A stretch of DNA of 64,000 bases from positions 355 to 64,354 of the forward strand of contig JAPLXC010000019.1 in assembly GCA_026396275.1 (NCBI GenBank), in the 5' to 3' direction. This document shows, in pieces, positions 1-61,884 of the stretch. The position numbers and the translations under genes were made by a program. A model generated the notes under the pieces. The model saw only the letters and a program-made list of their open reading frames with translations, was not told the DNA's origin and made no database searches. The stretch's first letter is position 1. Every line of letters starts with the position of its first letter. Source of the stretch: Candidatus Moraniibacteriota bacterium. GTDB lineage: Bacteria > Patescibacteriota > Minisyncoccia > Moranbacterales > JAPLXC01.

Positions 1-1
1 T

Positions 2-502
2 AAAAACGAGTGTCAGGTTGTTTATATTTTGTCTCGAATTAGAAAAATTTTAGAAATTAAAAATCAGAAAGATAAATACGAACTTCTTAATTTTTATTGT
101 AACTGGTCATTGCATGTTAATTTGAAATATAAAAATACAACGCAATTTATATCAAAAATGTTCGATCAATATATTGAATTTACGAAAAGTGAGAAGGATA
201 TTGCTCGCGAAATGAAATCTAATCATGCCGATTTTTTTAAGCTCAATGATTTAAAAAACGAGCTAAGGAAATTTTTTGAAGTCCATGATTTGCCATTAAA
301 CTTAGTAGATAAAAACAAATATTGGATTACTTTTATAAAGTTGCTTCTGGAAATAATTGAAGAATGTCCAGTTATTTGTATTAAAAGTTCAAAGAAAATA
401 GAAAGATTGACCCTGATAAAAAATAAAAAAGGAGATTATTGTTATAAATTTAATTTGATTAATTTAAGGCATAAACCAATCATAAAATTAAAGTTCAAAT
501 AA
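2..502 (+). CDS. Hypothetical protein, probably a C-terminal fragment; the frame is open back to the window edge and the listed start is TTG
   Basis: ORF track 29..502. No in-frame stop between positions 2 and 29. Very AT-rich coding sequence. No recognisable motif. Confidence 0.35.
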   Translation, partial: KNECQVVYILSRIRKILEIKNQKDKYELLNFYCNWSLHVNLKYKNTTQFISKMFDQYIEFTKSEKDIAREMKSNHADFFKLNDLKNELRKFFEVHDLPLNLVDKNKYWITFIKLLLEIIEECPVICIKSSKKIERLTLIKNKKGDYCYKFNLINLRHKPIIKLKFK

Positions 503-605
503 AATAATATCTAAAAAAATTTTTAGGCAGCGTGCCAGCCTTGTTGGCACAAAATCCGGTGGGGGAAAATATCTTTTCTAAAAAAGTTATTGCTAAATAA
601 AATTT

Positions 606-1376
606 ATGGATCCATTATCAATTTTGTCTGCAGTTCCAACTATCTGGGATTTTTTTAGACGATTACTAAAAGCGTTACCTAAGGCGATTACCTCCCATAG
701 TCTTAAAAAGTTTTTTGGTAAGCATTTTTTTGATAATAAAAAAATCTATCTGGTACTTGATACATACAGAGATTCACGACCCAGAACAGACAATCGTTAT
801 TATAAGGATTACCCGAATAGAGGAAAAGGACGACAGCCTCTTATAGGTGGTGATATAATTTATGGAACATTTGCTCCCAAATTCGTATCTTTATTTGAGT
901 CAAAATTTTCTGATTTCCGCAAGGGTCAATTTAATGTTGTGATAGACGAAGAGGTAGACACGGTTATGGATGCTACACTAGTTTGTTATGGGAGTTCAGA
1001 TTCAAATCTTAAAACATTTGATATTGAAAAAGAGTATGGCGGGAAATATTACGAATTCGTTTTTGGGAATAATAGACGGAGAGCTTTTAAAATGAAAGGT
1101 AGAATTTTTGAATTTAAACAAGGTACTCCCGCTAAAGATAGAGCAGTATTGCTAAAGATAAAGAATCCAAACGATAAAGAACATTCCTTAATTGTTTGCG
1201 CTGGACTTTCTGAATGGGGATCTCTTGCGGCTGCATACTATTTAGTTAATAATTGGCGAACGCTTTATAAGGATTACAAACAGAAAAACTTCTGCTTACT
1301 TTTTGAGATTACCTATGGTCAATTCGAAAATGCAAATGTTTTAGAAAGAATTACAGAGGAAGATATTGATAAATGA
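606..1376 (+). CDS. Hypothetical protein of the AT-rich island; the C-terminus has a Rossmann-like beta-strand followed by a Gly loop (HSLIVCAGLSEWGSLAAAYYL)
   Basis: 256-aa ORF. The strand-plus-Gly-loop motif resembles nucleotide-binding or sensor folds (SLOG/DprA/LOG-like), but this is inference only. Low GC relative to neighbours. Confidence 0.45.
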   Translation: MDPLSILSAVPTIWDFFRRLLKALPKAITSHSLKKFFGKHFFDNKKIYLVLDTYRDSRPRTDNRYYKDYPNRGKGRQPLIGGDIIYGTFAPKFVSLFESKFSDFRKGQFNVVIDEEVDTVMDATLVCYGSSDSNLKTFDIEKEYGGKYYEFVFGNNRRRAFKMKGRIFEFKQGTPAKDRAVLLKIKNPNDKEHSLIVCAGLSEWGSLAAAYYLVNNWRTLYKDYKQKNFCLLFEITYGQFENANVLERITEEDIDK

Positions 1377-1378
1377 AA

Positions 1379-1408
1379 TCACTTGAGGACTGTCCTCGCC
1401 TCGGCCAT
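1379..1408. repeat. 30-bp direct repeat copy A (tcacttgaggactgtcctcgcctcggccat) containing the GAGGAC/GTCCTC hairpin
   Basis: 27 of 30 positions match the copy at 2239-2267. Together the two copies bracket ORF 1431..2201. Confidence 0.8.
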
Positions 1409-1430
1409 TTTATAAAAAAATGTTATAAAG

Positions 1431-2201
1431 ATGAAACAACTAGAATTTGAAGGAGAATTAAAATGGATTTCTCCGAACAAAATTATCAAAGAGGGTGGCT
1501 ATAATGTGGATAATGAAGTGGCTAGTTTTTTTATAGGATTCGGGGTTATTTTTAATGACCTAAAAGATCTAATTTTATTTGAACAATTGCTCATTAATAA
1601 TTATCGTAAACCGAAGGAAAAAAAGGCGTCTGTTCACTCAGGAAGTTATAATGGAATAATTGTTCATATAAACAAATTAATAGCCAGTACTATTCATGAA
1701 TTTTTTAAATTTTTGAATAAAAATAAAAAAATTTTAGGCACAAGAGAGTTTAACGAAATATTAAATAAGCTTCCCGCAGAAGAAAAAATAATATGGAATG
1801 GACTTGTTGCTGCCTCTCAGGGTAATTTGTTAAAGGCCTTAAATTTTTTAAAAACTATCGTCCGTATTAGAAGTAATATAGCTTTTCATTATGATCATTC
1901 TGGAAAAATTTTAAAAAGAGGATATAAAAGTCGATTTTTTGGTGAATATAAAGATGATAGTAATAAATGTGCTTATTATTCTATAGGGGATAAAATCGAA
2001 CTTACTAGATTTTTCTTTGCTGACGCGGTTGTTGAAGAATCTCTATTTATCGAAGCAGGAAAGGAAGAGAAAAAGAAGTTTATAGAGGATATGAGCTTGA
2101 TAAAATATCAAGCTCAATTAAGAGAGACTGTTAATGTTGTAACTAAAATTATAAAGCTTTTGTTGAAAAATTTTTTACAATCACGGCGTAACCGTCCGTG
2201 A
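1431..2201 (+). CDS. Hypothetical alpha-helical protein with a HEPN-like Rx5H motif (VRIRSNIAFHYD); candidate RNase effector
   Basis: 256-aa ORF flanked by near-identical 30-bp direct repeats at 1379-1408 and 2239-2267. The Rx4-6H pattern is characteristic of HEPN domains. AT-rich. Confidence 0.45.
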   Translation: MKQLEFEGELKWISPNKIIKEGGYNVDNEVASFFIGFGVIFNDLKDLILFEQLLINNYRKPKEKKASVHSGSYNGIIVHINKLIASTIHEFFKFLNKNKKILGTREFNEILNKLPAEEKIIWNGLVAASQGNLLKALNFLKTIVRIRSNIAFHYDHSGKILKRGYKSRFFGEYKDDSNKCAYYSIGDKIELTRFFFADAVVEESLFIEAGKEEKKKFIEDMSLIKYQAQLRETVNVVTKIIKLLLKNFLQSRRNRP

Positions 2202-2238
2202 TTACGTAATTAATTACCCCGTAAAATCCGCGGCGGAT

Positions 2239-2267
2239 CACTCGAGGACCGTCCTCGCTTCGGCCAT
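2239..2267. repeat. 30-bp direct repeat copy B (tcactcgaggaccgtcctcgcttcggccat)
   Basis: See copy A. Immediately followed by a palindromic element. Confidence 0.8.
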
Positions 2268-2278
2268 CAAATCTAATA

Positions 2279-2304
2279 GTTGCTATGGATTGCGTACGCA
2301 ATTT
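2279..2304. repeat. Palindromic element, truncated copy (gttgctatggattgcgtacgcaattt)
   Basis: Matches the near-perfect 37-nt palindrome at 37642-37678 (GGTTGCTAT-aa-ATTGCGTACGCAAT-cc-ATAGCAACC). Confidence 0.7.
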
Positions 2305-2402
2305 ATAAGAGTCATTAAGTTTTTTATCTACGTAGATACCTATGTAGATCCGAAACTTGGCCGGCCCCGGGAGAGCTGGGTTTTTTTGGTTTCTTTAAGC
2401 CC

Positions 2403-2459
2403 TTGACAAAACGCCTAATTTGACTATAATATTGATGTTTTGAATGGAATTGGTATAAT
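2403..2459 (+). promoter_or_regulatory. Tandem sigma70-like promoters upstream of the RNase P RNA
   Basis: TTGACA at 2403-2408, 16-nt spacer, TATAAT at 2425-2430. A second pair: TTGATG at 2432-2437 and TATAAT at 2454-2459. Confidence 0.5.
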
Positions 2460-2467
2460 AATAGCGT

Positions 2468-2762
2468 GTTCTTTTTAGGTCTAATACTCATCAAGGCAAG
2501 CTGGGCAATTACTCTTCTGCAGGGTTCTGCAGCGGGGAGGAAAGTCCGGACATTCGGTCCCGCTTTGGCGGGACAAGGGTAGCGGGTAACGCCCGTCTAG
2601 AGTAATCTAAGAGGTGCGAGCAGAAACGCCGCGTGGCGAAAGCTTTACGCGGGGACCCCATCCCAAGCTAGGTGGTCCAACTCCGCTATAGGGATAAAAA
2701 GGCGGAGATGAAACGGCTAAATCCTTACCTGAATGCAAGGTCGTACTGCCAATGCTTTGCGT
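2468..2762 (+). ncRNA. rnpB: RNase P RNA (bacterial type A-like, compact); boundaries approximate
   Basis: P4 5' strand GGAGGAAAGTCCGGAC at 2536-2550 preceded by the P3 hairpin CTGCAG-ggtt-CTGCAG. AGGGTAGCGGGTAACGCCCG matches the conserved GGUAACGCC region. P4 3'-strand-like GAAACGGCTAAAT at 2709-2721. The minus-strand ORF 2607..2831 is spurious. Confidence 0.75.
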
Positions 2763-3041
2763 TGGCTTTGTGCCGCTAGAGCTCCGCAGTAATGCGGAGT
2801 CGAGATTAATGATTGCCACCGATGTGTTCACCTTGATGTCACCCCAGCACCTTTTCCGGGTATAAATTTACCTATAATGGAAACTTGTTTCACGGAACGG
2901 CTTCGCCTGAACAGGAAATGATATGAAATTTGTACTTAGAAAAGGTGCGGGGTGCTCAATGTGTTACCGAAATTAAAATTTCGAACACATTGGCACAGAA
3001 TCCGGCTTATGGCTTGTCTTGATAAGTATTGGACTTAATTT

Positions 3042-4454
3042 ATGAAAAAGTCAGAATTATTTTTTAGCGCGTTTCAGGTGCCAGTGGACTTTGCAATGAT
3101 TATTCTGGCGGCAATCACCGCTTTTGCCATCCGCGACATTCCCCAGATTTTGGCGCTCAAACCCAAACTGTATAATTTTCCCTTTGAGAGCTACGTTGAA
3201 ATTGCACTTTTAGTAGCTCCTTTTTTTATTCTTATTTACGCCTTGGAAGGGCTTTATGACATCCGGTCAACCAGGAAAATTTGGAAAGAAATAGTAAAGG
3301 TCTTCGTAGCCACTTCAATCGGCCTGGTCATAATTATTGTTGCCATATTTCTTAAGCGCGAATGGTTTTCTTCGCGTTTTATAATTTTAGCCGGCTGGTT
3401 TTTTATGGTCGTTTATGTCGTGATAGCCAGATTTATTCTCCAAAATATCCAGAAGGTGCTTTTGGTTAAAAAAGGAATTGGCATCCACCGGGTGCTTCTC
3501 ATTGGCCGCAACGGTAAAATTGATGAAATTGGCAGAGTGATAAAGGAAAAGCCAAAGCTGGGTTATAAAATTGTCGGGCAGATTGATACCGGAAGCGTGA
3601 AGGCGGTGAAGCAAATTCGCGGGGCTGAGGGAGTAGATGAAATTATCGTCTGCGATCCGACGCTTACCGATGCCGAGCAGGAAAAATTGGTTGATTATTG
3701 CGCGATCAATAACGTTTCCTATAAATTTATTCCCACTACTCTCCAGACATCTCAGCTGGAAATCGGGATGCTGGACGGCGAGCCCATTATTGAGGTTCAG
3801 CATACTCCTTTGGAAGGGTGGGGAAGGATACTCAAAAGAATCTTTGACATTGCGGGATCAGCCGCACTGATTATTATTTTCTCTCCGGTTATGATTGTTA
3901 CGGCCATAATTATTTGGCTTGAGGGAGAGGGGCCGATTATTTATAAGAACGAACGGATAGGAAACGACGGGAAAAAATTTTACGCCTGCAAATTCCGCTA
4001 TATGAAATGGCGTTACAGCATCCATCGTGACAATCCGAATTTAAAAGAAGCGCTTGAATACGAACAAGAACTAATCAGGGAACGGAGCGTCCGCCAGGGA
4101 CCCCTTTATAAAATCAAAAACGACCCTCGCAAGACCACTTTTGGAAAATTTATTGAAAAGTATTCTATTGACGAACTCCCGCAATTTTTTAATGTATTAA
4201 AAGGCGACATGAGCTTGGTTGGGCCGCGCCCCCATCAGGAAAGGGAAGTGGAAAAATACCGCGAATATCACCGCCGGCTGCTCACCATCAAACCGGGGAT
4301 AACCGGCATGGCGCAAGTGGCGGGCCGGTCCGATCTTGATTTCGAGGACGAATATAAAATGGATGTCTATTACATTGAAAACTGGTCGCTGTGGCTGGAT
4401 ATCCAGCTTTGCCTGAAAACCGTCGGAGTGATTTTCAGAAGGAGGAAAAATTGA
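3042..4454 (+). CDS. Polyprenyl glycosylphosphotransferase (bacterial sugar transferase, WbaP/EPS family)
   Basis: N-terminal TM segments. C-terminal bac_transf motifs DELPQFFNVLKGDMSLVGPRP and KPGITGMAQV. Confidence 0.85.
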   Translation: MKKSELFFSAFQVPVDFAMIILAAITAFAIRDIPQILALKPKLYNFPFESYVEIALLVAPFFILIYALEGLYDIRSTRKIWKEIVKVFVATSIGLVIIIVAIFLKREWFSSRFIILAGWFFMVVYVVIARFILQNIQKVLLVKKGIGIHRVLLIGRNGKIDEIGRVIKEKPKLGYKIVGQIDTGSVKAVKQIRGAEGVDEIIVCDPTLTDAEQEKLVDYCAINNVSYKFIPTTLQTSQLEIGMLDGEPIIEVQHTPLEGWGRILKRIFDIAGSAALIIIFSPVMIVTAIIIWLEGEGPIIYKNERIGNDGKKFYACKFRYMKWRYSIHRDNPNLKEALEYEQELIRERSVRQGPLYKIKNDPRKTTFGKFIEKYSIDELPQFFNVLKGDMSLVGPRPHQEREVEKYREYHRRLLTIKPGITGMAQVAGRSDLDFEDEYKMDVYYIENWSLWLDIQLCLKTVGVIFRRRKN

Positions 4455-4981: not shown

Positions 4982-5662
4982 ATGAAAGTAAAATTTCACA
5001 TAATTACCCTGTTTCCTCAAATGTTTGAAGGGTATTTTTCCCATTCGATTTTGAAAAAAGCCGAGAAAAAAGGCCTTATTGACGTTAAGGTTTATAACCT
5101 GCGCGATTACACTGCCGACAAACACCGCACAGCCGACGATACGCCGTACGGCGGGGGAGCCGGGATGGTGTTGAAAATTGAACCGATTTATAGATGCGTG
5201 CAAGATTTAAAATCAAAAATCAAAAATCAAAAATCAAAATTAAGGATAGCTTTGTTCTCTGCTAAGGGAAAGAAATATACACAAAAGGAAGCTGAAAGAT
5301 TGGTAAAGTATAATGACCTAATACTGATTTGCGGCAGGTATGAAGGAGTAGATGAGCGGGTAGCCAAATACATTGCTGATGAGGAAATTTCAATTGGCGA
5401 TTATGTATTGACTGGAGGAGAAATCCCAGCGATGATTTTGGTTGATTCAATAGCCCGCCTAATACCCGGGGTCTTAAGCAATACAGAAAGCTTGAAAAGC
5501 GAGTCGCACAGTAACGAGGGATACCTGGAATATCCACAATACACCAAGCCCGAAAATTTTCGCGGCTGGAAGGTGCCGAAAATTTTGCTAAGCGGAAATC
5601 ATAAGAGGATCGAGGAATGGAGAATTAAAAGTTCAAAAATTAAAATTCAAAAATCAAAATGA
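4982..5662 (+). CDS. trmD: tRNA (guanine37-N1)-methyltransferase TrmD, carrying in-frame heptamer-repeat insertions
   Basis: [27 protein letters not shown] and [12 protein letters not shown] motifs. The [10 protein letters not shown] insert is encoded by (AAAATCA)n. Confidence 0.9.
5207..5241. repeat. (AAAATCA)n heptanucleotide microsatellite, about 4.5 units, in frame inside trmD
   Basis: Read directly from the sequence. Encodes [10 protein letters not shown]. Confidence 0.9.
5628..5660. repeat. Degenerate AAAATCA/AAAATTA repeats at the trmD 3' end, encoding [11 protein letters not shown]
   Basis: Read directly. An inverted copy (cattttgatatttacattttg) lies downstream at about 5700-5740. 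Confidence 0.7.
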
Positions 5663-5742: not shown

Positions 5743-6855
5743 ATGGTCATGTCTCAAAATCAGCCCGACAAAAAACTGCTTTTCACCGTCTTTGCACTGA
5801 TAATATTTGGTTTAGTTATGATCGCCAGCGCCGGGGTGGTGTATTCGCAAACCCGCTTTGGCGACCAGTATTATTTCTTCAAGCATCAGCTTTTTTTTGG
5901 CGTTATTCCCGGACTGGTGGCGCTTTATATTTTCCAGAAAATTGACTATCATTTTTGGAAAAAGATGGCAACGCCCTTTTTCATTCTTTCCCTGGTCTTG
6001 CTGGTCTTAGTGTTTGTTCCCGGCATTGGAGCCAAGGCCTACGGCGCCAGCCGCTGGATTCAATTAGGTTCATTTTCCTTTCAGCCGGCAGAGATGATGA
6101 AATTGGCAATCGTGCTTTACTTGGCGGCCTGGCTGGAAAGCCGCGGATGGAGAAAGGCAAGGGATTTTTTTGAAGGTCTTCTGCCCTTTTTGGTTATCAT
6201 GGGTGCTGTGGGCTTTCTGATTATTAAACAGCCAAATATAGGCACATTGGGAGTAATTATCCTGACTTCCCTTACTATTTATTTCATTGCCGGAGCGCGG
6301 CTCTCTCATATGATCTCTCTAATTTCCGCCGGGGTGCTGCTTTTGGTAGTTCTTGTTAAAATAGCGCCTTATCGTTTTAGCCGCTTTCTTGTCTTTCTCA
6401 ATCCCCAGCTTGATCCCCGAGGAATCGGATATCAGATCAATCAGGCGCTTTTAGCCATTGGCTCGGGAGGGATTTTTGGACTAGGACTGGGACATAGCCG
6501 CCAAAAGTTTAATTATCTTCCCGAGCCAACTGGGGATTCAATTTTTGCTATAATAGGAGAAGAGTTAGGCATTATTGGAGCGGGTCTAATTATCCTCCTT
6601 TTTGTTGCTCTGGCTTTTCGGGGATTAAAGATTGCCGCCAGTGCTCCTGATAATTTTGGAAGGTTAGCAGCCGGCGGAGTTACTGCTTGGATTGTTATTC
6701 AGGCCTTTGTTAACATTTCAGCCATCACGGGAATTATTCCGCTTACGGGCATTCCGTTGCCGTTTATCAGCTACGGCGGAACCTCACTGATGTTCGTAAT
6801 GGCAGGGGTCGGGATATTGCTTAATATTTCAAAACAAGCAAAAATGGAATCATAA
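5743..6855 (+). CDS. ftsW: SEDS-family peptidoglycan glycosyltransferase FtsW (FtsW/RodA/SpoVE)
   Basis: Polytopic membrane protein with the typical N-terminus and a C-terminal GIIPLTGIPLPFISYGG motif. Sits in ftsW-murG-murC synteny. Confidence 0.85.
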   Translation: MVMSQNQPDKKLLFTVFALIIFGLVMIASAGVVYSQTRFGDQYYFFKHQLFFGVIPGLVALYIFQKIDYHFWKKMATPFFILSLVLLVLVFVPGIGAKAYGASRWIQLGSFSFQPAEMMKLAIVLYLAAWLESRGWRKARDFFEGLLPFLVIMGAVGFLIIKQPNIGTLGVIILTSLTIYFIAGARLSHMISLISAGVLLLVVLVKIAPYRFSRFLVFLNPQLDPRGIGYQINQALLAIGSGGIFGLGLGHSRQKFNYLPEPTGDSIFAIIGEELGIIGAGLIILLFVALAFRGLKIAASAPDNFGRLAAGGVTAWIVIQAFVNISAITGIIPLTGIPLPFISYGGTSLMFVMAGVGILLNISKQAKMES

Positions 6856-13346: not shown

Positions 13347-13348
13347 TC

Positions 13349-13427
13349 TTTACGAATTACGAATTTTGTACGAATATACAAATATTTTTTTAATTAGTAT
13401 ATTAGTATTTGATTAGTAATTAGTAAA
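13349..13427. repeat. Intergenic repeat family B copy 1 (ACGAATTACGAATTTTGTACGAATATAC ... ATTAGTATATTAGTATTTGATTAGTAATTAGTA)
   Basis: About 85% identical to 61811-61884 and related to 25193-25275. Sits between the murB stop and the hpf start. Confidence 0.8.
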
Positions 13428-14453: not shown

Positions 14454-14511
14454 TGTCATCCCGAACTTAATTCAGGATCTAATTAGATTCCGGATCGAGT
14501 CCGGAATGACA
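14454..14511. mobile_element. MITE-like hairpin element family A (TGTCATCC...GATTCCGGATCGAGTCCGGAATGACA), copy 1, in the secA 5' UTR
   Basis: Terminal inverted ends TGTCAT/ATGACA with two internal stem-loops. Related copies at 19262, 46473, 52606, 54436 and 55265. Confidence 0.75.
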
Positions 14512-19261: not shown

Positions 19262-19331
19262 TGTCATTCCTGCCTCTGAGCCGGAATCCAGAACAAATTT
19301 TTCTAGATTCCGCATCAAGTGCGGAATGACA
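19262..19331. mobile_element. MITE-like element family A copy 2
   Basis: TGTCATTCCTGCC...GATTCCGCATCAAGTGCGGAATGACA. Relative to copy 1, one stem base pair has a compensatory change (GG/CC to GC/GC). Confidence 0.75.
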
Positions 19332-19636: not shown

Positions 19637-21346
19637 ATGAATATCAGGAAAAAAATCAAGATTAAATTTGCAGGAGTTTTATTTCTTGGCATAATTGCCG
19701 GGCTGATTTCGTATCCTCAAGCAATGAAATTCGCGCCGCCGTTTTATAATGCGCTTAATAAACTTAAGATAAATTTAGGCCTGGATCTTCAGGGCGGAAT
19801 ACATTTGGAATATAAAGCCGATGTTTCCAATGTTGAAAAAAGCAAAGTTAACGATGCTCTTCAGGGGGCGCAGGACGTGATTGAGCGACGCATTAATGCT
19901 TTTGGCGTCGGCGAACCGTTAGTGCAAACAGCGCAATCAGGAGGAGAACGTCGGATTGTTGTAGAACTGCCCGGAGTGAAAGACATTGAAGAGGCAAAAA
20001 AAAGAATAAAAGACACGCCTTTTTTGGAATTTAAAGAAGAGACCAGTCCCGAGGAATTGGCCAAAACCCAGGAATTATTCAATTCCTTGAATGAGCAGAC
20101 AAAAAAACAGGCAGAGGATATCCTTCAGCGCGCGCTGGCCAGTGAAAATCTTGAGGACTTGGCAAAGCAGTACAGTCAGGATCCCGGCTCTAAGGACCAG
20201 GGTGGTGATCTGGGTTTTGTGAAGAAAGGGATTTTTGTTCCTGAATTTAACAAAATTTTATTTGAAGAAAATTTAAAGCCGGGCGAAATTTACCCCAAGC
20301 TGGTTGAATCCCAATTCGGCTGGCATATTATTAAATTTATTGAATCGCGCGGGGAAGGGGATAATCTGGAGGTGCATAGCCAGCATATTCTTTTTGCCAA
20401 GCAGTCGGCGGAGATGGTTCCTGATTTGAAATATAAATCAACCGGGCTTTCAGGAAAAAATCTCAAAAGTGCCGCGGTGACCTTTACCAGCCAGGGCTTG
20501 AGTGAGCCGCAGGTTTCCCTGAAATTCGACGCAGAAGGGACAAAACTTTTCGCGGAACTTACTAAAAAAAATCTGGGGAAAACCATCGCTATTTATCTTG
20601 ATGGCACAGTTATTAGTGCCCCAGTGGTCCAGGCGGAAATCGCCAATGGTGAAGCTGTTATCACGGGAGATTTTTCCCAGGAGGAAGCAAAAGAATTGGC
20701 TCAACGTCTCAATGAAGGAGCGCTTCCGGTACCACTCACGTTAGTCGGCCAGCAAAGCGTGGAAGCGTCACTGGGAGCCGAATCTCTGAAAAAAAGTTTT
20801 GTGGCTGGCCTGGTGGGACTGGCGGCGGTGATGATCTTTATGATTTTTTATTACCGGTTCCTGGGAGTGGTGGCAGTGATAGCTCTTCTTATTTACACCT
20901 GCATAATGGTTTCCATCGTAAAATTATCCGGAACTTTCACTCCCTGGCCGATTACTCTTACCCTTTCCGGAATCGCCGGCTTTATTCTTTCCATCGGAAT
21001 GGCGGTTGATGCCAATATCCTGATATTTGAAAGAACTAAAGAAGAAATCCGAAGGGGGAGAGGCATTATGAACGCACTGGACGAAGGATTTAAGCGCGCC
21101 TGGACGTCCATCCGCGACGGCAATGTTTCTTCCATTATTACCTCTTTCATTTTAATTATGATGGGAACCGGCTTTGTTAAGGGATTCGCCGTGATGCTGA
21201 TTGTCGGAGTGCTGATTTCGATGTTCACGGCAGTGACGATTTCAAGAACGTTGCTTAGGGTTTTGGTGGGAGAGTGGATAATGGATAAGCTGTGGATGAT
21301 GGGGATTTCTGAAAAATCAAAAATCAAAAATCAAAATGAAAAATGA
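19637..21346 (+). CDS. secD: Protein translocase subunit SecD with an inserted parvulin-like (PpiC-type PPIase) segment
   Basis: SecD TM core. Periplasmic region contains [37 protein letters not shown]...[18 protein letters not shown]...HSQHILF. C-terminal KSKIKNQ heptamer insert. Confidence 0.85.
21311..21340. repeat. (AAAATCA)x3 heptamer repeat in frame at the secD 3' end
   Basis: Read directly. An inverted partner ttttgatatttgattttttatttttgatat lies at about 21385-21415. Confidence 0.85.
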
Positions 21347-25192: not shown

Positions 25193-25275
25193 CTTTACAA
25201 ATTACTAATTTAATACGAATATACTAATCATTTCTTAAAAATTCGTATATTAGTAAATAATTCGTAATTAGTAAA
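25193..25275. repeat. Intergenic repeat family B copy 2 (rearranged)
   Basis: Shares tctttac...tacgaatata...attcgtatattagtaaataattcgtaattagtaaag with copies 1 and 3. Confidence 0.65.
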
Positions 25276-25283
25276 GAATTGTC

Positions 25284-27359
25284 ATGAAATTTTCATATAA
25301 TTGGTTGAAAGAATTAAGCGGAACGAAAAAGTCGCCAAAAGAATTGGCGGAGCTTTTGACAATGCGTTCATTTGAGGTTGAAGGAATTGAAAAAGCAAAA
25401 AGCGATAATGTTTTGGATATTAAAATACTGGCTGATCGGGGACATGATTGTTTAAGTCATATAGGAATTGCCAGGGAAATTACAGCACTCGAAGGAAAAA
25501 AATTTGTCTTACATTACGGAAAATCAAAAATCAAAAATCAAAAATCAAAAATTGTTAAGATAGATATTCAAGACAAGAAATTATGTCCTCGCTATATCGG
25601 CGCGGTAATGACGAATATAAAAATAGGGCCGTCGCCAAAATGGATGCAGGAACGATTAATTACTGGAGGATTAAGGCCGATAAACAATATAGTTGACGCA
25701 ACCAATTATGTAATGCTGGAAACGGGACAGCCACTGCACGCATTCGATGCGGACAAAATCAAAGATCAAAAATCAAAAATCAAAATTATAATAAGGAAAG
25801 CGAAAAAAGGGGAGAAAATTAAATTGTTGGATGAAACGGAAAAAGTTTTAGCAGACGATGATCTAGTAATTGCTGATTCTCAAAAAGCCCTGGCTATTGC
25901 CGGGATTAAGGGCGGGGTGGAGGCGGAAATTGGCGAGAACACCCAAACGATCGTGCTGGAAGCGGCAAATTTCAATCCGACGGCCATTCGCAAAAGCCGG
26001 ATTCGTCTGGGACTAAAAACCGATGCCTCCGACCGGTTTGAAAAAGAAATTGATCCCAATCTTGCGGAAATCGCAATGGCAAGAGTTGTCTGGATAATTG
26101 AGGAATTTGGCGGAAAAACGGAAGGAATGTTTGATGTTTATCCTTCCAAGGTGAATTCTTGGAAAATCAAGTTGGACCTGAATTATGTTAATAAACTTCT
26201 TGGAGAAAATATACCAGTCAAGGCGGTTACAAAAATATTAAAATCGCTCGGATTGCTGGTTACTGGTTACGGATCACAAGTTACGGTTACGGTTCCGACG
26301 TTCAGGATTGATTTAAAAACCCAGGAAGATCTGGTTGAAGAAATCGGAAGAATTTACGGATATGAGAAAATTAAGCCGCAAGCCCCTCACGCTCCGATTC
26401 AGGCGGCGGAGGTGAACGAGCAAAGGTTATTTGAGAGGGAGGTCAAAAATATTCTTGCGGGCAAAGGATTTTCGGAAGTGTATAATTATTCCTTCTACAG
26501 CGCGCGCGACGCGGGACTGGCCGGGCTGGGAGCGATCGAGCATCTGGAACTGGAAAATCCGATGAATCCCGATCAAGCGTTGATGCGGGTGAGCTTGATT
26601 CCTGGAATTTTGAAAAATATTAATCATAATCTGAAATATTTTGACGATTTTCGAATTTTTGAAATTGGGCGCGTATATTGGACAAATAAAACAATATTAC
26701 CTGAAGAAAAAAATATGCTGGCGGGAGCGATTGTTATGGAAGAAAGCAGCAAGAAGGAAGCATTAAGCGGAGTTGAAAAAGCAAAAGGATTTTATGAATT
26801 AAAAAGTTATGCAGATGTATTGCTAAGCAGGATAGGAATTGATGATTATTATTTTGACACTTTTGACGCGGTGCCAAATGATTCATTTTCAACGCTCTGG
26901 CACGAGGGAAGGACAGCGGAAATAAAAATAGAAGGTCATGAAAAAGCCATTGGATTTTTGGGAGAAATAAATCCTTTTTTACTGGCCAATTTTGATATTC
27001 ACAAAAGAGTGGCGTGTTTCGAATTTGATCTGGAAAAGTTGCAGGAAATATCCCAGTCGGAAAGAGAATATCAGCCGGTCAGGAAATATCCGGAAGTTAT
27101 CCGCGATATATCCATGATCGCCCGGAGCAATGTACTGGTAGACGAAATTCTAGCTGCTATTCAAAAAGCTGGAGGAAATTTAGTTCTAGATGTTGACCTC
27201 TTTGACATTTTCGATTTTGCCGACAGCACATCCAGCTACGCTTTTCACATTATCTTCGGTGCGGAAAACCGGACGCTCAAAAGCGGGGAAGTGGATGAAT
27301 TGATGAAAAAAATAAGTTCTGTGCTGGAAAAAGATTTAAAGGTTAAGGTAAGGAAATAA
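25284..27359 (+). CDS. pheT: Phenylalanyl-tRNA synthetase beta subunit, with two in-frame heptamer inserts
   Basis: MKFSYNWLKEL N-terminus plus the B3/4 and B5 domains. Inserts [12 protein letters not shown] and KIKDQKSKIKI. Confidence 0.9.
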   Translation: MKFSYNWLKELSGTKKSPKELAELLTMRSFEVEGIEKAKSDNVLDIKILADRGHDCLSHIGIAREITALEGKKFVLHYGKSKIKNQKSKIVKIDIQDKKLCPRYIGAVMTNIKIGPSPKWMQERLITGGLRPINNIVDATNYVMLETGQPLHAFDADKIKDQKSKIKIIIRKAKKGEKIKLLDETEKVLADDDLVIADSQKALAIAGIKGGVEAEIGENTQTIVLEAANFNPTAIRKSRIRLGLKTDASDRFEKEIDPNLAEIAMARVVWIIEEFGGKTEGMFDVYPSKVNSWKIKLDLNYVNKLLGENIPVKAVTKILKSLGLLVTGYGSQVTVTVPTFRIDLKTQEDLVEEIGRIYGYEKIKPQAPHAPIQAAEVNEQRLFEREVKNILAGKGFSEVYNYSFYSARDAGLAGLGAIEHLELENPMNPDQALMRVSLIPGILKNINHNLKYFDDFRIFEIGRVYWTNKTILPEEKNMLAGAIVMEESSKKEALSGVEKAKGFYELKSYADVLLSRIGIDDYYFDTFDAVPNDSFSTLWHEGRTAEIKIEGHEKAIGFLGEINPFLLANFDIHKRVACFEFDLEKLQEISQSEREYQPVRKYPEVIRDISMIARSNVLVDEILAAIQKAGGNLVLDVDLFDIFDFADSTSSYAFHIIFGAENRTLKSGEVDELMKKISSVLEKDLKVKVRK
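25521..25549. repeat. (AAAATCA)x3 in frame inside pheT
   Basis: Read directly. Confidence 0.85.
25756..25786. repeat. (AAAATCA)-type heptamer repeat in frame inside pheT, second site
   Basis: Sequence reads aaaatcaaagatcaaaaatcaaaaatcaaaat. Confidence 0.85.
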
Positions 27360-35392: not shown

Positions 35393-37336
35393 ATGACCGC
35401 TCAAGAATTACGGCAGAAATTTCTGGACTTTTTTAAGTCGAAGGAGCACGCTATTATTCCTTCGGCGTCTTTAATTCCGCGCGAAACCGACCCGACAGTG
35501 CTTTTTACCACGGCTGGAATGCACCCGCTAGTGCCATATCTTCTGGGGGAAGACCATCCCGGCGGCCGGCGCGTCGCTAACGTGCAAAAATGCATTCGTA
35601 CGGTGGATATTGAAGAAGTAGGGGATAATCGCCACCTTACCTTTTTTGAGATGCTGGGAAACTGGAGTTTTGGCGACCCTGCCTCGCCCGACGGCATTGG
35701 CGGGGCGGGCTATTTTAAGCGCGAGGCGATTGAGTGGAGCTGGGAATTTTTAACTGGCAAAAAATGGCTTGAATTGGATCCGAAAAGAATTTATGTGACA
35801 GTTTTTCAGGAAGAACAGGGGATACCTAGAGACGAAGAGTCAATTATGATTTGGCAGGAAGTGTTGGCTAAAGCCGGAATTTCCAGCAGCGTTGCCGGCG
35901 AAAATTCAATCATCAAAGACGATATCAGAATCATTTCACTGGGAACGGACGACAATTTCTGGATTGCAAGCGCCACTGGTCCCTGCGGTCCGGACACGGA
36001 AATGTTTTATGACACGCGCCCGGCAGATGGCCCAATAAATGATACTTTTGAGAACCTGGTTAATTCCGGCCGCCTGATTGAAATGTGGAACGATGTTTTT
36101 ATGGAGTTTAATAAAACCACCGATGGAAAGTATGAAAAGTTGAAGCAGAAAAATGTGGATACGGGAATGGGAGTGGAACGGACACTGGCGGTGCTTAACG
36201 GAAAAGAAACCGTCTTTGACACGGAATTGTTTGAACCGATTTTCAAGAAAATAAAAAACGTCATCCCGGACTCGATCCGGGATCCAGAAATGGATTCCCG
36301 CCTTCGCGGGAACGACAATGATGATCAGAAAAGCTATAGAATTATCGCTGATCATATAAAAGCTGCTGTTTTTATTCTGGCTGATAGCGTTGTTCCTTCC
36401 AATGTTTTGCAGGGCTACGTCTTGCGCCGCTTAATTCGCCGGGCGATCAGGCACGGAAAAATCATCGGGATTCAGAATAATTTTACCCGGGCAATCGCGA
36501 AAGTGGTGATTGAAACGTACGAAGATTTTTATCCGGAAGTAGGGGAGAATAAAAATAGGATTTTGGAGGAGCTGGAAAAGGAGGAGGATAAATTTAGAAA
36601 AACGTTGGAGAAAGGATTAAAAGAACTTGATTTGTTACTTAAGATTGACCAAGCTATGCCATTTTCTGTTGCTACTTCTAAATCTGGATGGGTGAGCGGA
36701 GAAGAAGCGTTTAATTTATATCAATCTTATGGTTTTCCGTTGGAATTGTTTTTTGAAGAATTGGACAGAAGAAATATCATGTATGATAAAAACAGTATAA
36801 ACAGAGATTTTAATAAAAGATTTATAAAACACCAAAAATTGTCAGAAACAGCGGCGGCCGGGCAATTTAAAGGCGGACTGGCGCAAGTAAGCGAAGAGAC
36901 AGCCCGGCTCCATACGGCCACCCATTTGCTTTTGGCGGCTCTGCGAAACGTTTTAGGGCCGCATGTTTATCAAAAGGGTTCAAATATCACTGCCGAACGG
37001 CTGCGATTTGATTTTTCTCATCCTCAAAAAATGACTTCCGAGGAAATTAAAAAAGTGGAAAGAATTGTGAATGATTATATTGAAAGAAATCTTCCCGTCG
37101 TTGCGGAAGAAATGAGTATTGAAGAAGCCAAAAAGATCGGAGCAATGGGGGTCTTTGATGCCAAATACGGGGAGAAAGTCAGGGTTTACACGATAGGGGA
37201 AAAGATGTTTCCCATAAGCATTGAGATCTGCGGCGGACCGCATGCTAATTCTACCGGAGAACTGGGACATTTCAGAATCGTCAAAGAAGAGGCTTCTTCG
37301 GCGGGAGTGAGAAGAATTAAAGCAATTTTAGAGTAG
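35393..37336 (+). CDS. alaS: Alanyl-tRNA synthetase, short form (catalytic, tRNA-recognition and editing domains; no C-Ala domain)
   Basis: PSASLIP..DPT.LFT.AGM and FEMLGNWSFGDY class II motifs. Editing-domain HTATHLL...H motif present. Confidence 0.85.
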   Translation: MTAQELRQKFLDFFKSKEHAIIPSASLIPRETDPTVLFTTAGMHPLVPYLLGEDHPGGRRVANVQKCIRTVDIEEVGDNRHLTFFEMLGNWSFGDPASPDGIGGAGYFKREAIEWSWEFLTGKKWLELDPKRIYVTVFQEEQGIPRDEESIMIWQEVLAKAGISSSVAGENSIIKDDIRIISLGTDDNFWIASATGPCGPDTEMFYDTRPADGPINDTFENLVNSGRLIEMWNDVFMEFNKTTDGKYEKLKQKNVDTGMGVERTLAVLNGKETVFDTELFEPIFKKIKNVIPDSIRDPEMDSRLRGNDNDDQKSYRIIADHIKAAVFILADSVVPSNVLQGYVLRRLIRRAIRHGKIIGIQNNFTRAIAKVVIETYEDFYPEVGENKNRILEELEKEEDKFRKTLEKGLKELDLLLKIDQAMPFSVATSKSGWVSGEEAFNLYQSYGFPLELFFEELDRRNIMYDKNSINRDFNKRFIKHQKLSETAAAGQFKGGLAQVSEETARLHTATHLLLAALRNVLGPHVYQKGSNITAERLRFDFSHPQKMTSEEIKKVERIVNDYIERNLPVVAEEMSIEEAKKIGAMGVFDAKYGEKVRVYTIGEKMFPISIEICGGPHANSTGELGHFRIVKEEASSAGVRRIKAILE

Positions 37337-37641: not shown

Positions 37642-37678
37642 GGGTTGCTATAAATTGCGTACGCAATCCATAGCAACC
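37642..37678. repeat. Near-perfect 37-nt palindrome GGTTGCTAT-aa-ATTGCGTACGCAAT-cc-ATAGCAACC
   Basis: Self-complementary. A truncated copy lies at 2279-2304. Confidence 0.8.
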
Positions 37679-52605: not shown

Positions 52606-52690
52606 GCGAAACTTGTCCTCGAGAAATCGGGGAGCGGGAATCCAGAAAACTTTTTTCTTTACTGGATTCCGCATCAAGTGCGGAATGACA
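52606..52690. mobile_element. MITE-like element family A copy 3 (long loop variant), in the divergent corA/yidD spacer
   Basis: TGTCATTCCCGC...GCGGGAATCCAGAAAAC...GATTCCGCATCAAGTGCGGAATGACA. Confidence 0.75.
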
Positions 52691-54435: not shown

Positions 54436-54504
54436 TGTCATCCTGAACTTGTTTCAGGATCTAATGATATCGGATTAGATTCCGGATCAAGTCCGGAATG
54501 ACAA
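54436..54504. mobile_element. MITE-like element family A copy 4, in the hrcA 5' UTR
   Basis: TGTCATCCTGAA-cttgtt-TCAGGATC...GATTCCGGATCAAGTCCGGAATGACA. Confidence 0.75.
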
Positions 54505-55255: not shown

Positions 55256-55264
55256 TAAAATGTT

Positions 55265-55295
55265 ATTCCGGGCTTGACCCGGAATCCAGAAAAAT
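55265..55295. mobile_element. MITE-like element family A, partial copy (ATTCCGGGCTTGACCCGGAATCCAGAAAAAT)
   Basis: Shares CCGGAATCCAGAAAA with copies 2 and 3. Confidence 0.5.
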
Positions 55296-61653: not shown

Positions 61654-61810
61654 AAAATTTCGAAGCGGGCAGTTGACAAAGTCAATTTCCCGCTTTTTTG
61701 TTTTTCTGTCTGACAAAATTTTCACTCGGCCTGAATTAGCACTCGGGAGGTGGGATTGCTAATTTTGCTGAATTGTTGTATAATCTGATAAGCTTGTATA
61801 GTTGCTTCCT

Positions 61811-61884
61811 CTACGAATTACGAATTTGGTACGAATATACGAATTATGGGTATTAGTATATTAGTATATGATTAGTAATTAGTA
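61811..61884. repeat. Intergenic repeat family B copy 3, immediately upstream of dnaJ
   Basis: ctacgaattacgaatttggtacgaatatacgaatt...attagtatattagtatatgattagtaattagta. Confidence 0.8.

Follow-up and report, generated by a model that had tools for sequence, protein, structure and literature searches.

Two near-identical copies of a short, hairpin-containing repeat lie on either side of a single gene near the start of a metagenome-assembled contig of Candidatus Moranbacteria (CPR), which raises the question of what these copies are and whether they mark the gene as mobile. A preliminary description of the locus had answered that the gene is a swappable, HEPN-like cassette delimited by attC-like recombination sites or by duplicated terminators. 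We analyzed a window of 64 kb (the whole stretch of DNA under study), which starts inside the island that carries the gene. The features discussed below are listed in Table 1.

Table 1. Positions of the features of the repeat locus within the 64-kb window
Feature	Position	Strand	Remarks
AT-rich foreign island	1–2400	+	ORF1–ORF3; GC3 0.22–0.25; absent from the syntenic relative L011
ORF2	606–1376	+	256 aa; stop codon 1374–1376; small CPR family
Repeat copy 1 (ATCACTTGAGGACTGTCCTCGCCTCGGCCAT)	1378–1408	+	Starts 2 nt past the ORF2 stop; ends 22 nt short of the ORF3 start
ORF3	1431–2201	+	256 aa; stop codon 2199–2201; sole gene between the repeats; all-alpha; CPR-restricted family
Palindromic motif ATTACGTAATTAATTACCCC	2201–2220	+	Abuts the ORF3 stop
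Repeat copy 2 (ATCACTCGAGGACCGTCCTCGCTTCGGCCAT)	2237–2267	+	Starts 36 nt past the ORF3 stop
Degenerate copy of the 36-nt palindrome (GGTTGCTATRRATTGCGTACGCAATYYATAGCAACC)	2278–2313		11 nt past repeat copy 2
Canonical terminator	2361–2390	+	Hairpin + T7; ends the ORF2–ORF3 transcription unit
Right-hand core boundary	2403–3025	+	Perfect sigma-70 promoter 2403–2430; RNase P RNA gene (rnpB) about 2490–3025
Full copy of the 36-nt palindrome	37643–37678		Core genome, between convergent genes, 35 kb away

A 31-nt direct repeat around one gene

Sequence comparison revealed a direct repeat of 31 nt (ATCACTYGAGGACYGTCCTCGCYTCGGCCAT), one nucleotide longer than the 30-bp unit described previously owing to an additional shared A on its 5' side. 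The two copies are identical at 28/31 positions, with a start-to-start distance of 859 bp, and their three differences (repeat positions 7, 14, and 23) are all pyrimidine (C/T) transitions. ORF3 was the single plus-strand ORF of at least 50 aa between them, which bears out the earlier delimitation of a one-gene unit of approximately 860 bp; the GAGGAC/GTCCTC inverted repeat noted at that time was likewise found in each copy. The palindrome GAGGAC-N-GTCCTC, absent from the rest of the window, is 13 nt long with arms 1 nt apart and constitutes the sole symmetry within the repeat, and the conservation around it is asymmetric, extending over 7 nt on the 5' side and 11 nt on the 3' side. Both copies are extragenic.

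Chance fails to account for this pair. Two matches were obtained in 0/100 shuffles, the flank alignment score was 47, whereas shuffles averaged 19.5 and did not exceed 28, and blastn of the pair gave an E-value of 2e-5. The edges of the repeat are sharp, as the 150 nt upstream and the 150 nt downstream of both copies aligned no better than shuffled sequences.

Folding as RNA and as ssDNA, a check proposed in the preliminary description, yielded a hairpin in both copies, although of ordinary stability: the RNA values were -7.2 and -7.8 kcal/mol (z about -1 relative to shuffles) and the ssDNA values were -3.3 and -5.2 kcal/mol. The hairpin is weak and its folding unremarkable. The predicted stem-loops are GAGGA-CYG-UCCUC and a GC-YUCG-GC mini-hairpin. 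One of the three differences exchanges a possible U.G closing pair for C-G, a change that preserves pairing in plus-strand RNA only, and the other two fall in loops, with both hairpins surviving; such structure-neutral placement is expected by chance with a probability of ~0.17 and has no statistical weight. A T run begins 11 nt past the stem in copy 1, and copy 2 has none. A TATAAA hexamer follows 2 nt past the end of copy 1.

To the extent of the sequences scanned, the 31-mer appears to be private to this locus. The window contains exactly two copies, both within 900 bp, and a covariance model of the two, run with filters off, detected no third copy in the window and none in 11 related loci (75 kb); the 31-mer was also absent from 8 independent loci of ORF3 homologues. 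Scanning 185,579 species genomes with GAGGACNGTCCTCGCNTCGGCC gave 3 matches, all in GC-rich bacteria, and scanning JGI metagenomes with GAGGACNGTCCTCGCNTCGG gave 43, all on contigs of 54–79% GC, while viral contigs (IMG/VR) gave 0 matches to GAGGACNGTCCTCGCNTCGG. The matches from the genome and metagenome scans were treated as chance occurrences in GC-rich DNA. This includes a 27-nt exact match to copy 2 in an alpha/beta-hydrolase gene on a JGI contig (L036), for which the best-of-43 probability was estimated at ~0.01. Blastn of positions 1360–2400 against phages and plasmids returned nothing relevant, and no Rfam family matched at the repeats. The additional copies that the preliminary description had suggested looking for were thus found in none of these places, although the two copies themselves are real.

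Two other origins of the 31-mer were considered and rejected. Its alignment as a fragment of rnpB was no better than that of shuffles. A coding relic came into consideration because the minus strand of the 31-mer reads as an exact ATG...TGA mini-ORF, in which 2/3 of the differences are synonymous, and because of the match in the alpha/beta-hydrolase gene. This interpretation was unsupported: a ribosome-binding site is lacking, sequence similarity is confined to the block, and the match has the best-of-43 probability given above.

Single genes in a foreign island

The whole segment from 1 to 2400 is compositionally foreign, with a GC content of 25–34% and a GC3 in ORF1–ORF3 that is well separated from that of the core genes downstream (0.42–0.50). 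The island ORFs all have the same orientation, and the spacer between ORF1 and ORF2 (503–605) contains no copy of the 31-mer. In the syntenic relative L011, whose sugar transferase is 81% identical, ~10 bp separate the end of the PBP2 gene from the homologous rnpB promoter; both the island and the 31-mer are missing, and homology resumes at about 2399. The preliminary description had held that a repeat confined to this place, together with an uninterrupted related locus lacking it, would speak against a cassette. This was observed in part, as the 31-mer occurs here alone and L011 lacks it, but L011 is not a decisive empty site because the whole island is missing there, not ORF3 alone.

The ORF3 family comprises 64 proteins, all from CPR bacteria. 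ORF3 showed no match in Pfam, NCBIfam, or PADLOC, and its AlphaFold model, which is all-alpha and confident (pLDDT 91.6), had no significant Foldseek match in PDB or BFVD. Across 46 sequences of the family, R147 and H153 do not vary and N149 is almost invariant. Against the criteria for HEPN proteins, the Rx4-6H motif is present and a profile or fold match to known HEPN families is absent. The earlier label "HEPN-like" would accordingly be carried solely by the invariant R147-x5-H153 pair; that pair stands, and the searches for domains and folds added nothing to it. No relatives of ORF3 were detected in viral contigs.

The homologues of ORF3 adjoin different genes in every locus fetched. Their neighbors include type I restriction-modification genes with an NYN-domain protein, an Eco57I-like enzyme, a MutH-like nuclease with a methylase, an SLFN-like helicase, a PD-(D/E)XK/Cas4-like nuclease, and an S24 peptidase, and the putative function of ORF3 is probably defensive. 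ORF2 belongs to a family of 16 proteins and likewise showed no match in Pfam, NCBIfam, or PADLOC, nor did its model (pLDDT 72.9) have a significant Foldseek match. The gene that follows ORF2 homologues is either PD-(D/E)XK-like or encodes an S49 protease, and ORF2 is not a conserved partner of ORF3. Because the homologues of both genes have varied neighbors, ORF2 and ORF3 are, on genomic context, independent one-gene modules. The idea of a swappable gene is supported independently of the repeats. The idea of a swappable cassette was right about the gene, in view of these varied neighbors and of a foreign segment that is absent from the syntenic relative, and wrong about the kind of site, while the feature itself is real, non-random, and private to one locus. 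Flanking repeats are not a property of the ORF3 family, and that proposal was rejected; no significant pair was found at 6/8 independent ORF3 loci tested.

The sequences on the two sides of copy 2 are unlike. On the left, 15- to 17-mers of ATTACGTAATTAATTACCCC recur 3–4 times in intergenic spacers of a Parcubacteria island (L004), which carries an ORF3 homologue. On the right lies one arm of the 36-nt palindrome, and the full palindrome in the core genome matches positions 2279–2307 exactly over 29 nt on the opposite strand (E = 1e-10). Since the left-hand motif is shared with L004 and the right-hand palindrome has a core copy, copy 2 separates mobile-pool-type sequence from resident-type sequence. 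In L004, weaker hairpin-bearing direct repeats flank the ORF3 homologue; their score was reached by 15/500 shuffles, and the pair is a possible second instance of the arrangement. In the same island, a 34-nt palindromic repeat occurs on both sides of a MarR gene.

Short intergenic hairpin repeats are also present elsewhere in the window as several dispersed families, including one of five copies with compensatory stem changes (CCGCA/TGCGG, CCGGA/TCCGG, and CCGGG/CCCGG), and in the spacer at 2202–2400, four or more small palindromic motifs are combined into a BIME-like mosaic. We rejected the idea that such islands generally carry repeated intergenic modules, as L088, L090, and L092 have none. 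Scans of viral contigs with the AT-rich palindromes gave 4 and 29 matches, which were presumed to be chance.

A proposed insertion of a one-gene module behind ORF2

Our preferred explanation, which we hold tentatively, is that the two 31-mers are junction repeats that arose when a one-gene module carrying ORF3 inserted into a 31-nt site located behind ORF2. The 3' flank of ORF2 would originally have consisted of the 31-mer, the 36-nt palindrome, and the terminator at 2361–2390. An 859-bp module made up of ORF3, a short leader, and a ATTACGTAATTAATTACCCC tail would then have recombined with the single 31-nt site by Campbell-type integration of a circular intermediate, either catalyzed by a trans-acting recombinase or mediated by the short homology of a hairpin repeat. 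After this, ORF3 would have a copy of the site on either side, like attL and attR. Whatever their origin, both copies are now part of one transcript, in which they would form small stem-loops. The expected junction of an empty site would read ORF2 stop, 31-mer, CAAATCTAATAG (also given as CAAATCTAATAGTTGC), and that of an excised circle GCGGCGG, 31-mer, TTTATAAAAA (also given as CCGCGGCGG, 31-mer, TTTATAAAAAAATG). The insertion event, its direction, the circular intermediate, and the enzyme are what we infer from the arrangement described above.

Several observations argue for this explanation. Sharp edges without flank similarity fit a crossover site and not a segmental duplication. Exactly one gene is enclosed, the genes of the ORF3 family occur singly among varied neighbors, and ORF2 homologues are followed by other genes. 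Excision on paper would leave ORF2 with a complete 3' end and a real terminator, whereas the ORF3 module has no terminator of its own. Copy 2 sits between mobile-pool-type and resident-type sequence. In the sequences searched, the 31-mer is not a multi-copy family, and the L004 pair provides a weaker parallel. Other observations argue against it. Fresh junction repeats are usually identical, but these copies differ at 3/31 positions (10% diverged), which would require an old event or imperfect parental sites. Neither the DNA between the repeats nor that beside them encodes a recombinase or transposase, and the same is true of ten further small ORFs tested in the window. An empty site with ORF2, one 31-mer, and the downstream flank was not found, and the sole syntenic relative, L011, lacks the whole island. 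A 6-1-6 palindrome with asymmetric flanks fits no known recombinase core, most ORF3 loci (6/8) have no flanking repeat, and the ORF1 spacer has no copy.

Of the known systems, attL/attR junctions and non-autonomous element ends come closest to how the arrangement works. As in attL/attR, two copies of a short core flank the insert in direct orientation, with sharp edges and unrelated flanks, and the insert is foreign in composition and adjacent to a structural RNA gene, rnpB. Unlike in attL/attR, there is no recombinase gene in or next to the insert, ORF3 matches no recombinase family, the insert contains only one gene, of 771 bp, the copies have diverged, the site lies outside the RNA gene, and no empty site is known. 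At each end, IS200/IS605 elements and PATEs carry subterminal hairpins that are alike and located on one strand, so that the ends appear as direct repeats (PMC3201880). This is a resemblance only; no TnpA or TnpB and no second copy of the element were found in the window, and the hairpin here is a perfect 5–6-bp stem without imperfect-palindrome features, to which cleavage and guide sequences are not assignable. The 31-mers could nevertheless be the same-strand hairpin ends of a gene cassette of CPR bacteria that is minimal and non-autonomous and is mobilized in trans by a single-strand (HUH) transposase or an unrecognized recombinase, with the L004 repeats and ATTACGTAATTAATTACCCC as a second instance, a reading that we consider unlikely. 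In Acinetobacter, dif modules of one or a few genes, which shuffle between contexts, are bracketed by sites of ~28–31 bp (PMC6449649). These pdif Xer sites have a 6-bp spacer between two 11-bp arms, and those on either side of a module are in inverted orientation (PMC6449649), whereas here the palindrome has a 1-nt center and the copies are direct. The arrangement did not qualify as an integron cassette, an Xer dif module, or a REPIN, nor as an IS200/IS605 element, with which it shares only the same-strand end hairpins.

Alternative explanations and what the locus means

The palindromic surroundings of the repeats suggest the main alternative account, which is possible but, in our estimation, rather less than likely: the 31-mer may be a low-copy member of a REP-like extragenic repeat acting in RNA, whose hairpins would punctuate the ORF2–ORF3 mRNA and retard degradation of the upstream cistron in the 3'-to-5' direction, the flanking of ORF3 being incidental. 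REP, BIME, and REPIN sequences are likewise 20–40 nt long, GC-rich relative to their surroundings, hairpin-forming, extragenic, located past stop codons, and surrounded by a mosaic of further small palindromes (PMC3116915, PMC3337134). Consistent with this account, both copies lie just past stop codons in the direction of transcription and upstream of the real terminator, the window harbors several dispersed hairpin-repeat families (one with compensatory changes), the spacer past ORF3 is BIME-like, and both hairpins tolerate the three differences. Such families number tens to hundreds of copies, however, whereas the structure-aware search found two in the 64 kb examined, and these are direct and 859 bp apart, not inverted as in REPIN pairs (PMC3116915). 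None of the ORFs tested encodes a RAYT, and the scan of the ten small ORFs revealed no Y1 transposase; the hairpin is no more stable than shuffles, and the structure-neutral substitutions carry no weight. The insertion and REP-like accounts are not exclusive, and a resident hairpin repeat could have provided the short homology for insertion. If the 6-1-6 palindrome GAGGACnGTCCTC were instead a putative dimeric-regulator site, ORF3 would be under the control of copy 1, and a promoter further downstream under that of copy 2. The perfect 13-bp palindrome confined to the two copies, the position of copy 1 just ahead of TATAAA and the ORF3 ATG, and the MarR gene of L004 between its own palindromic repeats would suit such an operator, but the visible part of the island has no regulator gene, the promoter scan called none at either copy, a symmetric operator does not need asymmetric conservation, and past copy 2 there are only palindromes and the terminator. 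We therefore regard a protein-binding operator as improbable.

A role for the ORF3 product itself, as a putative Rx5H RNase that would bind or cut the flanking hairpins in the manner of autoregulation or type III toxin-antitoxin logic, is very improbable. In its favor are the invariance of R147 and H153, the location of both repeats on the strand of the ORF3 transcript, and the U.G/C-G difference, which keeps pairing in that RNA only. However, ORF3 has no HEPN profile or fold match, and the two copies 859 bp apart form no tandem or CRISPR-like array comparable to those of ToxIN-type systems. Because the 31-mer is at no other ORF3 locus and 6/8 of these loci have no flanking repeat at all, the family does not depend on such sites. 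The site types named in the preliminary description, integron attC boundaries and duplicated intrinsic terminators, fared worst; both were rejected, and we give them hardly any chance. One promoterless, terminatorless ORF with one site per unit, a unit size of ~860 bp typical of cassettes, co-oriented island genes, and cargo of a type found in defense islands are all reminiscent of integron cassettes, which are known to carry defense genes (10.1101/2024.07.02.601719). Nevertheless, when attC core sites were defined as R'' (RYYYAAC) and R' (GTTRRRY) 50–160 nt apart, positions 1–2500 yielded one RYYYAAC and no GTTRRRY on the plus strand, the reverse on the minus strand, and no candidate pair on either; R''/L''/L'/R' boxes are absent. 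An attC site is a long bulged hairpin (an imperfect dyad of about 57–140 nt), whereas the 31-nt block is about half the minimal attC length and is symmetric only in its 13-nt palindrome. No integrase or attI was seen in the window, which starts inside the island, and there are two sites only, with none past ORF1. As for terminators, the scan called neither copy, neither has a stem directly followed by a U tract, and the element that it did call is the canonical terminator at 2361–2390.

Insertion of a one-gene module remains the explanation that we prefer. At present, the finding consists of one locus with two copies and yields no general rule, and it is a local curiosity and not a new cassette system. 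Useful by-products of the analysis are the assignment of ORF2 and ORF3 to CPR-restricted single-gene families, the travel of ORF3 homologues in restriction-modification and nuclease neighborhoods, and the presence of several small hairpin-repeat families in this genome. The mobile-element biology of CPR bacteria is poorly known. If the minimal-cassette reading were true, it would imply integron-independent movement of single defense-type genes; if the insertion reading is true, single genes would be slotted into the islands of very small CPR genomes with no recombinase nearby.

The 31-nt direct repeats and their minus-strand reading

Scanning the JGI metagenomes for further copies of the 31-nt direct repeat that brackets ORF3 in the AT-rich island returned 43 hits. 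In one of them, locus L036 from an organism with 62% GC, repeat copy 2 is matched exactly over 27 nt (L036 positions 4123–4149). This match lies within an alpha/beta-hydrolase gene, where it reads ...GRSEDGPRE..., with a best-of-43 probability of approximately 0.01, and no similarity between L036 and copy 2 was found beyond the 27-nt block. Read on the minus strand (1379–1408 and 2238–2267), the repeat corresponds precisely to a mini-ORF of 9 codons, ATG GCC GAR GCG AGG ACR GTC CTC RAG TGA, with the product MAEARTVL[K/E]*, and two of the three differences between the copies are synonymous. No ribosome-binding site was found upstream of the mini-ORF, which is therefore probably a coincidence.

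RNase P RNA gene and the rnpB-like stretch in the island

The RNase P RNA gene (rnpB) of the window scored 83.7 bits, below the Rfam gathering threshold of 100, because it carries an additional long helix at approximately 2830–2990. The orthologue in L011 (6180–6860), the syntenic relative's locus without the island, has two AT-rich insertions of approximately 120–130 nt at positions other than that of the window helix. The helix and the L011 insertions are lineage-specific rnpB expansions in Moranbacteria.

The ORF1–ORF2 spacer of the island contains TTGGCACAAAATCCGG (544–559), preceded by a GTGCCA...TGGCAC hairpin and identical at 15 of 16 positions to window positions 2990–3005, in the conserved P4 3' strand region of the neighbouring rnpB. 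A match score as high was reached by 7 of 1000 shuffles; TTGGCACAAAATCCGG may be a relic of rnpB-targeted integration, or the match may be due to chance.

Other repeats in the window and in a Parcubacteria island

Several further repeats were identified in the window (see table). The 36-nt palindrome GGTTGCTATRRATTGCGTACGCAATYYATAGCAACC occurs twice. Members of the GATTCCGNNTCAAGNNCGGAATGACA hairpin family show compensatory stem changes and are often accompanied by TGTCATCCTGAAC...TTCAGGATC and GCCGGAATCCAGAA; one related copy lies in the alanyl-tRNA synthetase gene and is translated as ...DPEMDSRLRGNDN... By appearance, the family and its partners are small mobile hairpin repeats, of which some seem to be tolerated within coding regions. 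A three-copy composite repeat, consisting of 36 nt (CTTTACGAATTACGAATTT...) and 33 nt (ATTAGTATATTAGTA...), ends 11–15 nt upstream of the starts of three unrelated genes, which it could serve as a common promoter or leader module. AAAATCA heptamer runs were found both at gene ends and within coding sequences, namely a 691-aa ORF (25284–27359) and gene 4982–5662, which occupies the place of the Pfam tRNA_m1G_MT (TrmD) gene in L011.

Features of the window and their positions
Feature	Position	Context
GGTTGCTATRRATTGCGTACGCAATYYATAGCAACC palindrome, degenerate half	2278–2313	island spacer
GGTTGCTATRRATTGCGTACGCAATYYATAGCAACC palindrome, full copy	37643–37678	between convergent core genes, directly past terminator
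RNase P RNA gene	2490–3025	promoter 2403–2430
GATTCCGNNTCAAGNNCGGAATGACA hairpin repeat family	14486–14511, 19306–19331, 52665–52690, 54478–54503, 55261–55286(-), 36250–36284	
TGTCATCCTGAAC...TTCAGGATC	14454, 46473, 54436	
GCCGGAATCCAGAA	19280, 52634, 55278	
CTTTACGAATTACGAATTT/ATTAGTATATTAGTA composite repeat	13348–13425, 25193–25273, 61809–61884	
AAAATCA heptamer runs	5193–5232, 5620–5659, 21304–21343, 25504–25543, 25746–25785	

L004, a Parcubacteria island locus with an ORF3 homologue, carries a 55-nt promoter-like repeat with TATAAT ahead of three different genes (3947–4001, 5425–5479, and 6771–6825), and a 34-nt palindromic repeat flanks its MarR-family gene on both sides (6310–6343 and 6696–6729). 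The arrangement resembles a small set of unrelated one-gene modules that are regulated together.

ORF2 and ORF3

ORF2 (606–1376) and ORF3 (1431–2201) each encode exactly 256 aa and are unrelated in both sequence and predicted fold. Neither family matched a known domain, and both are confined to CPR bacteria. ORF3 relatives reside in restriction-modification and nuclease neighbourhoods, which makes ORF3 a candidate new defence gene.
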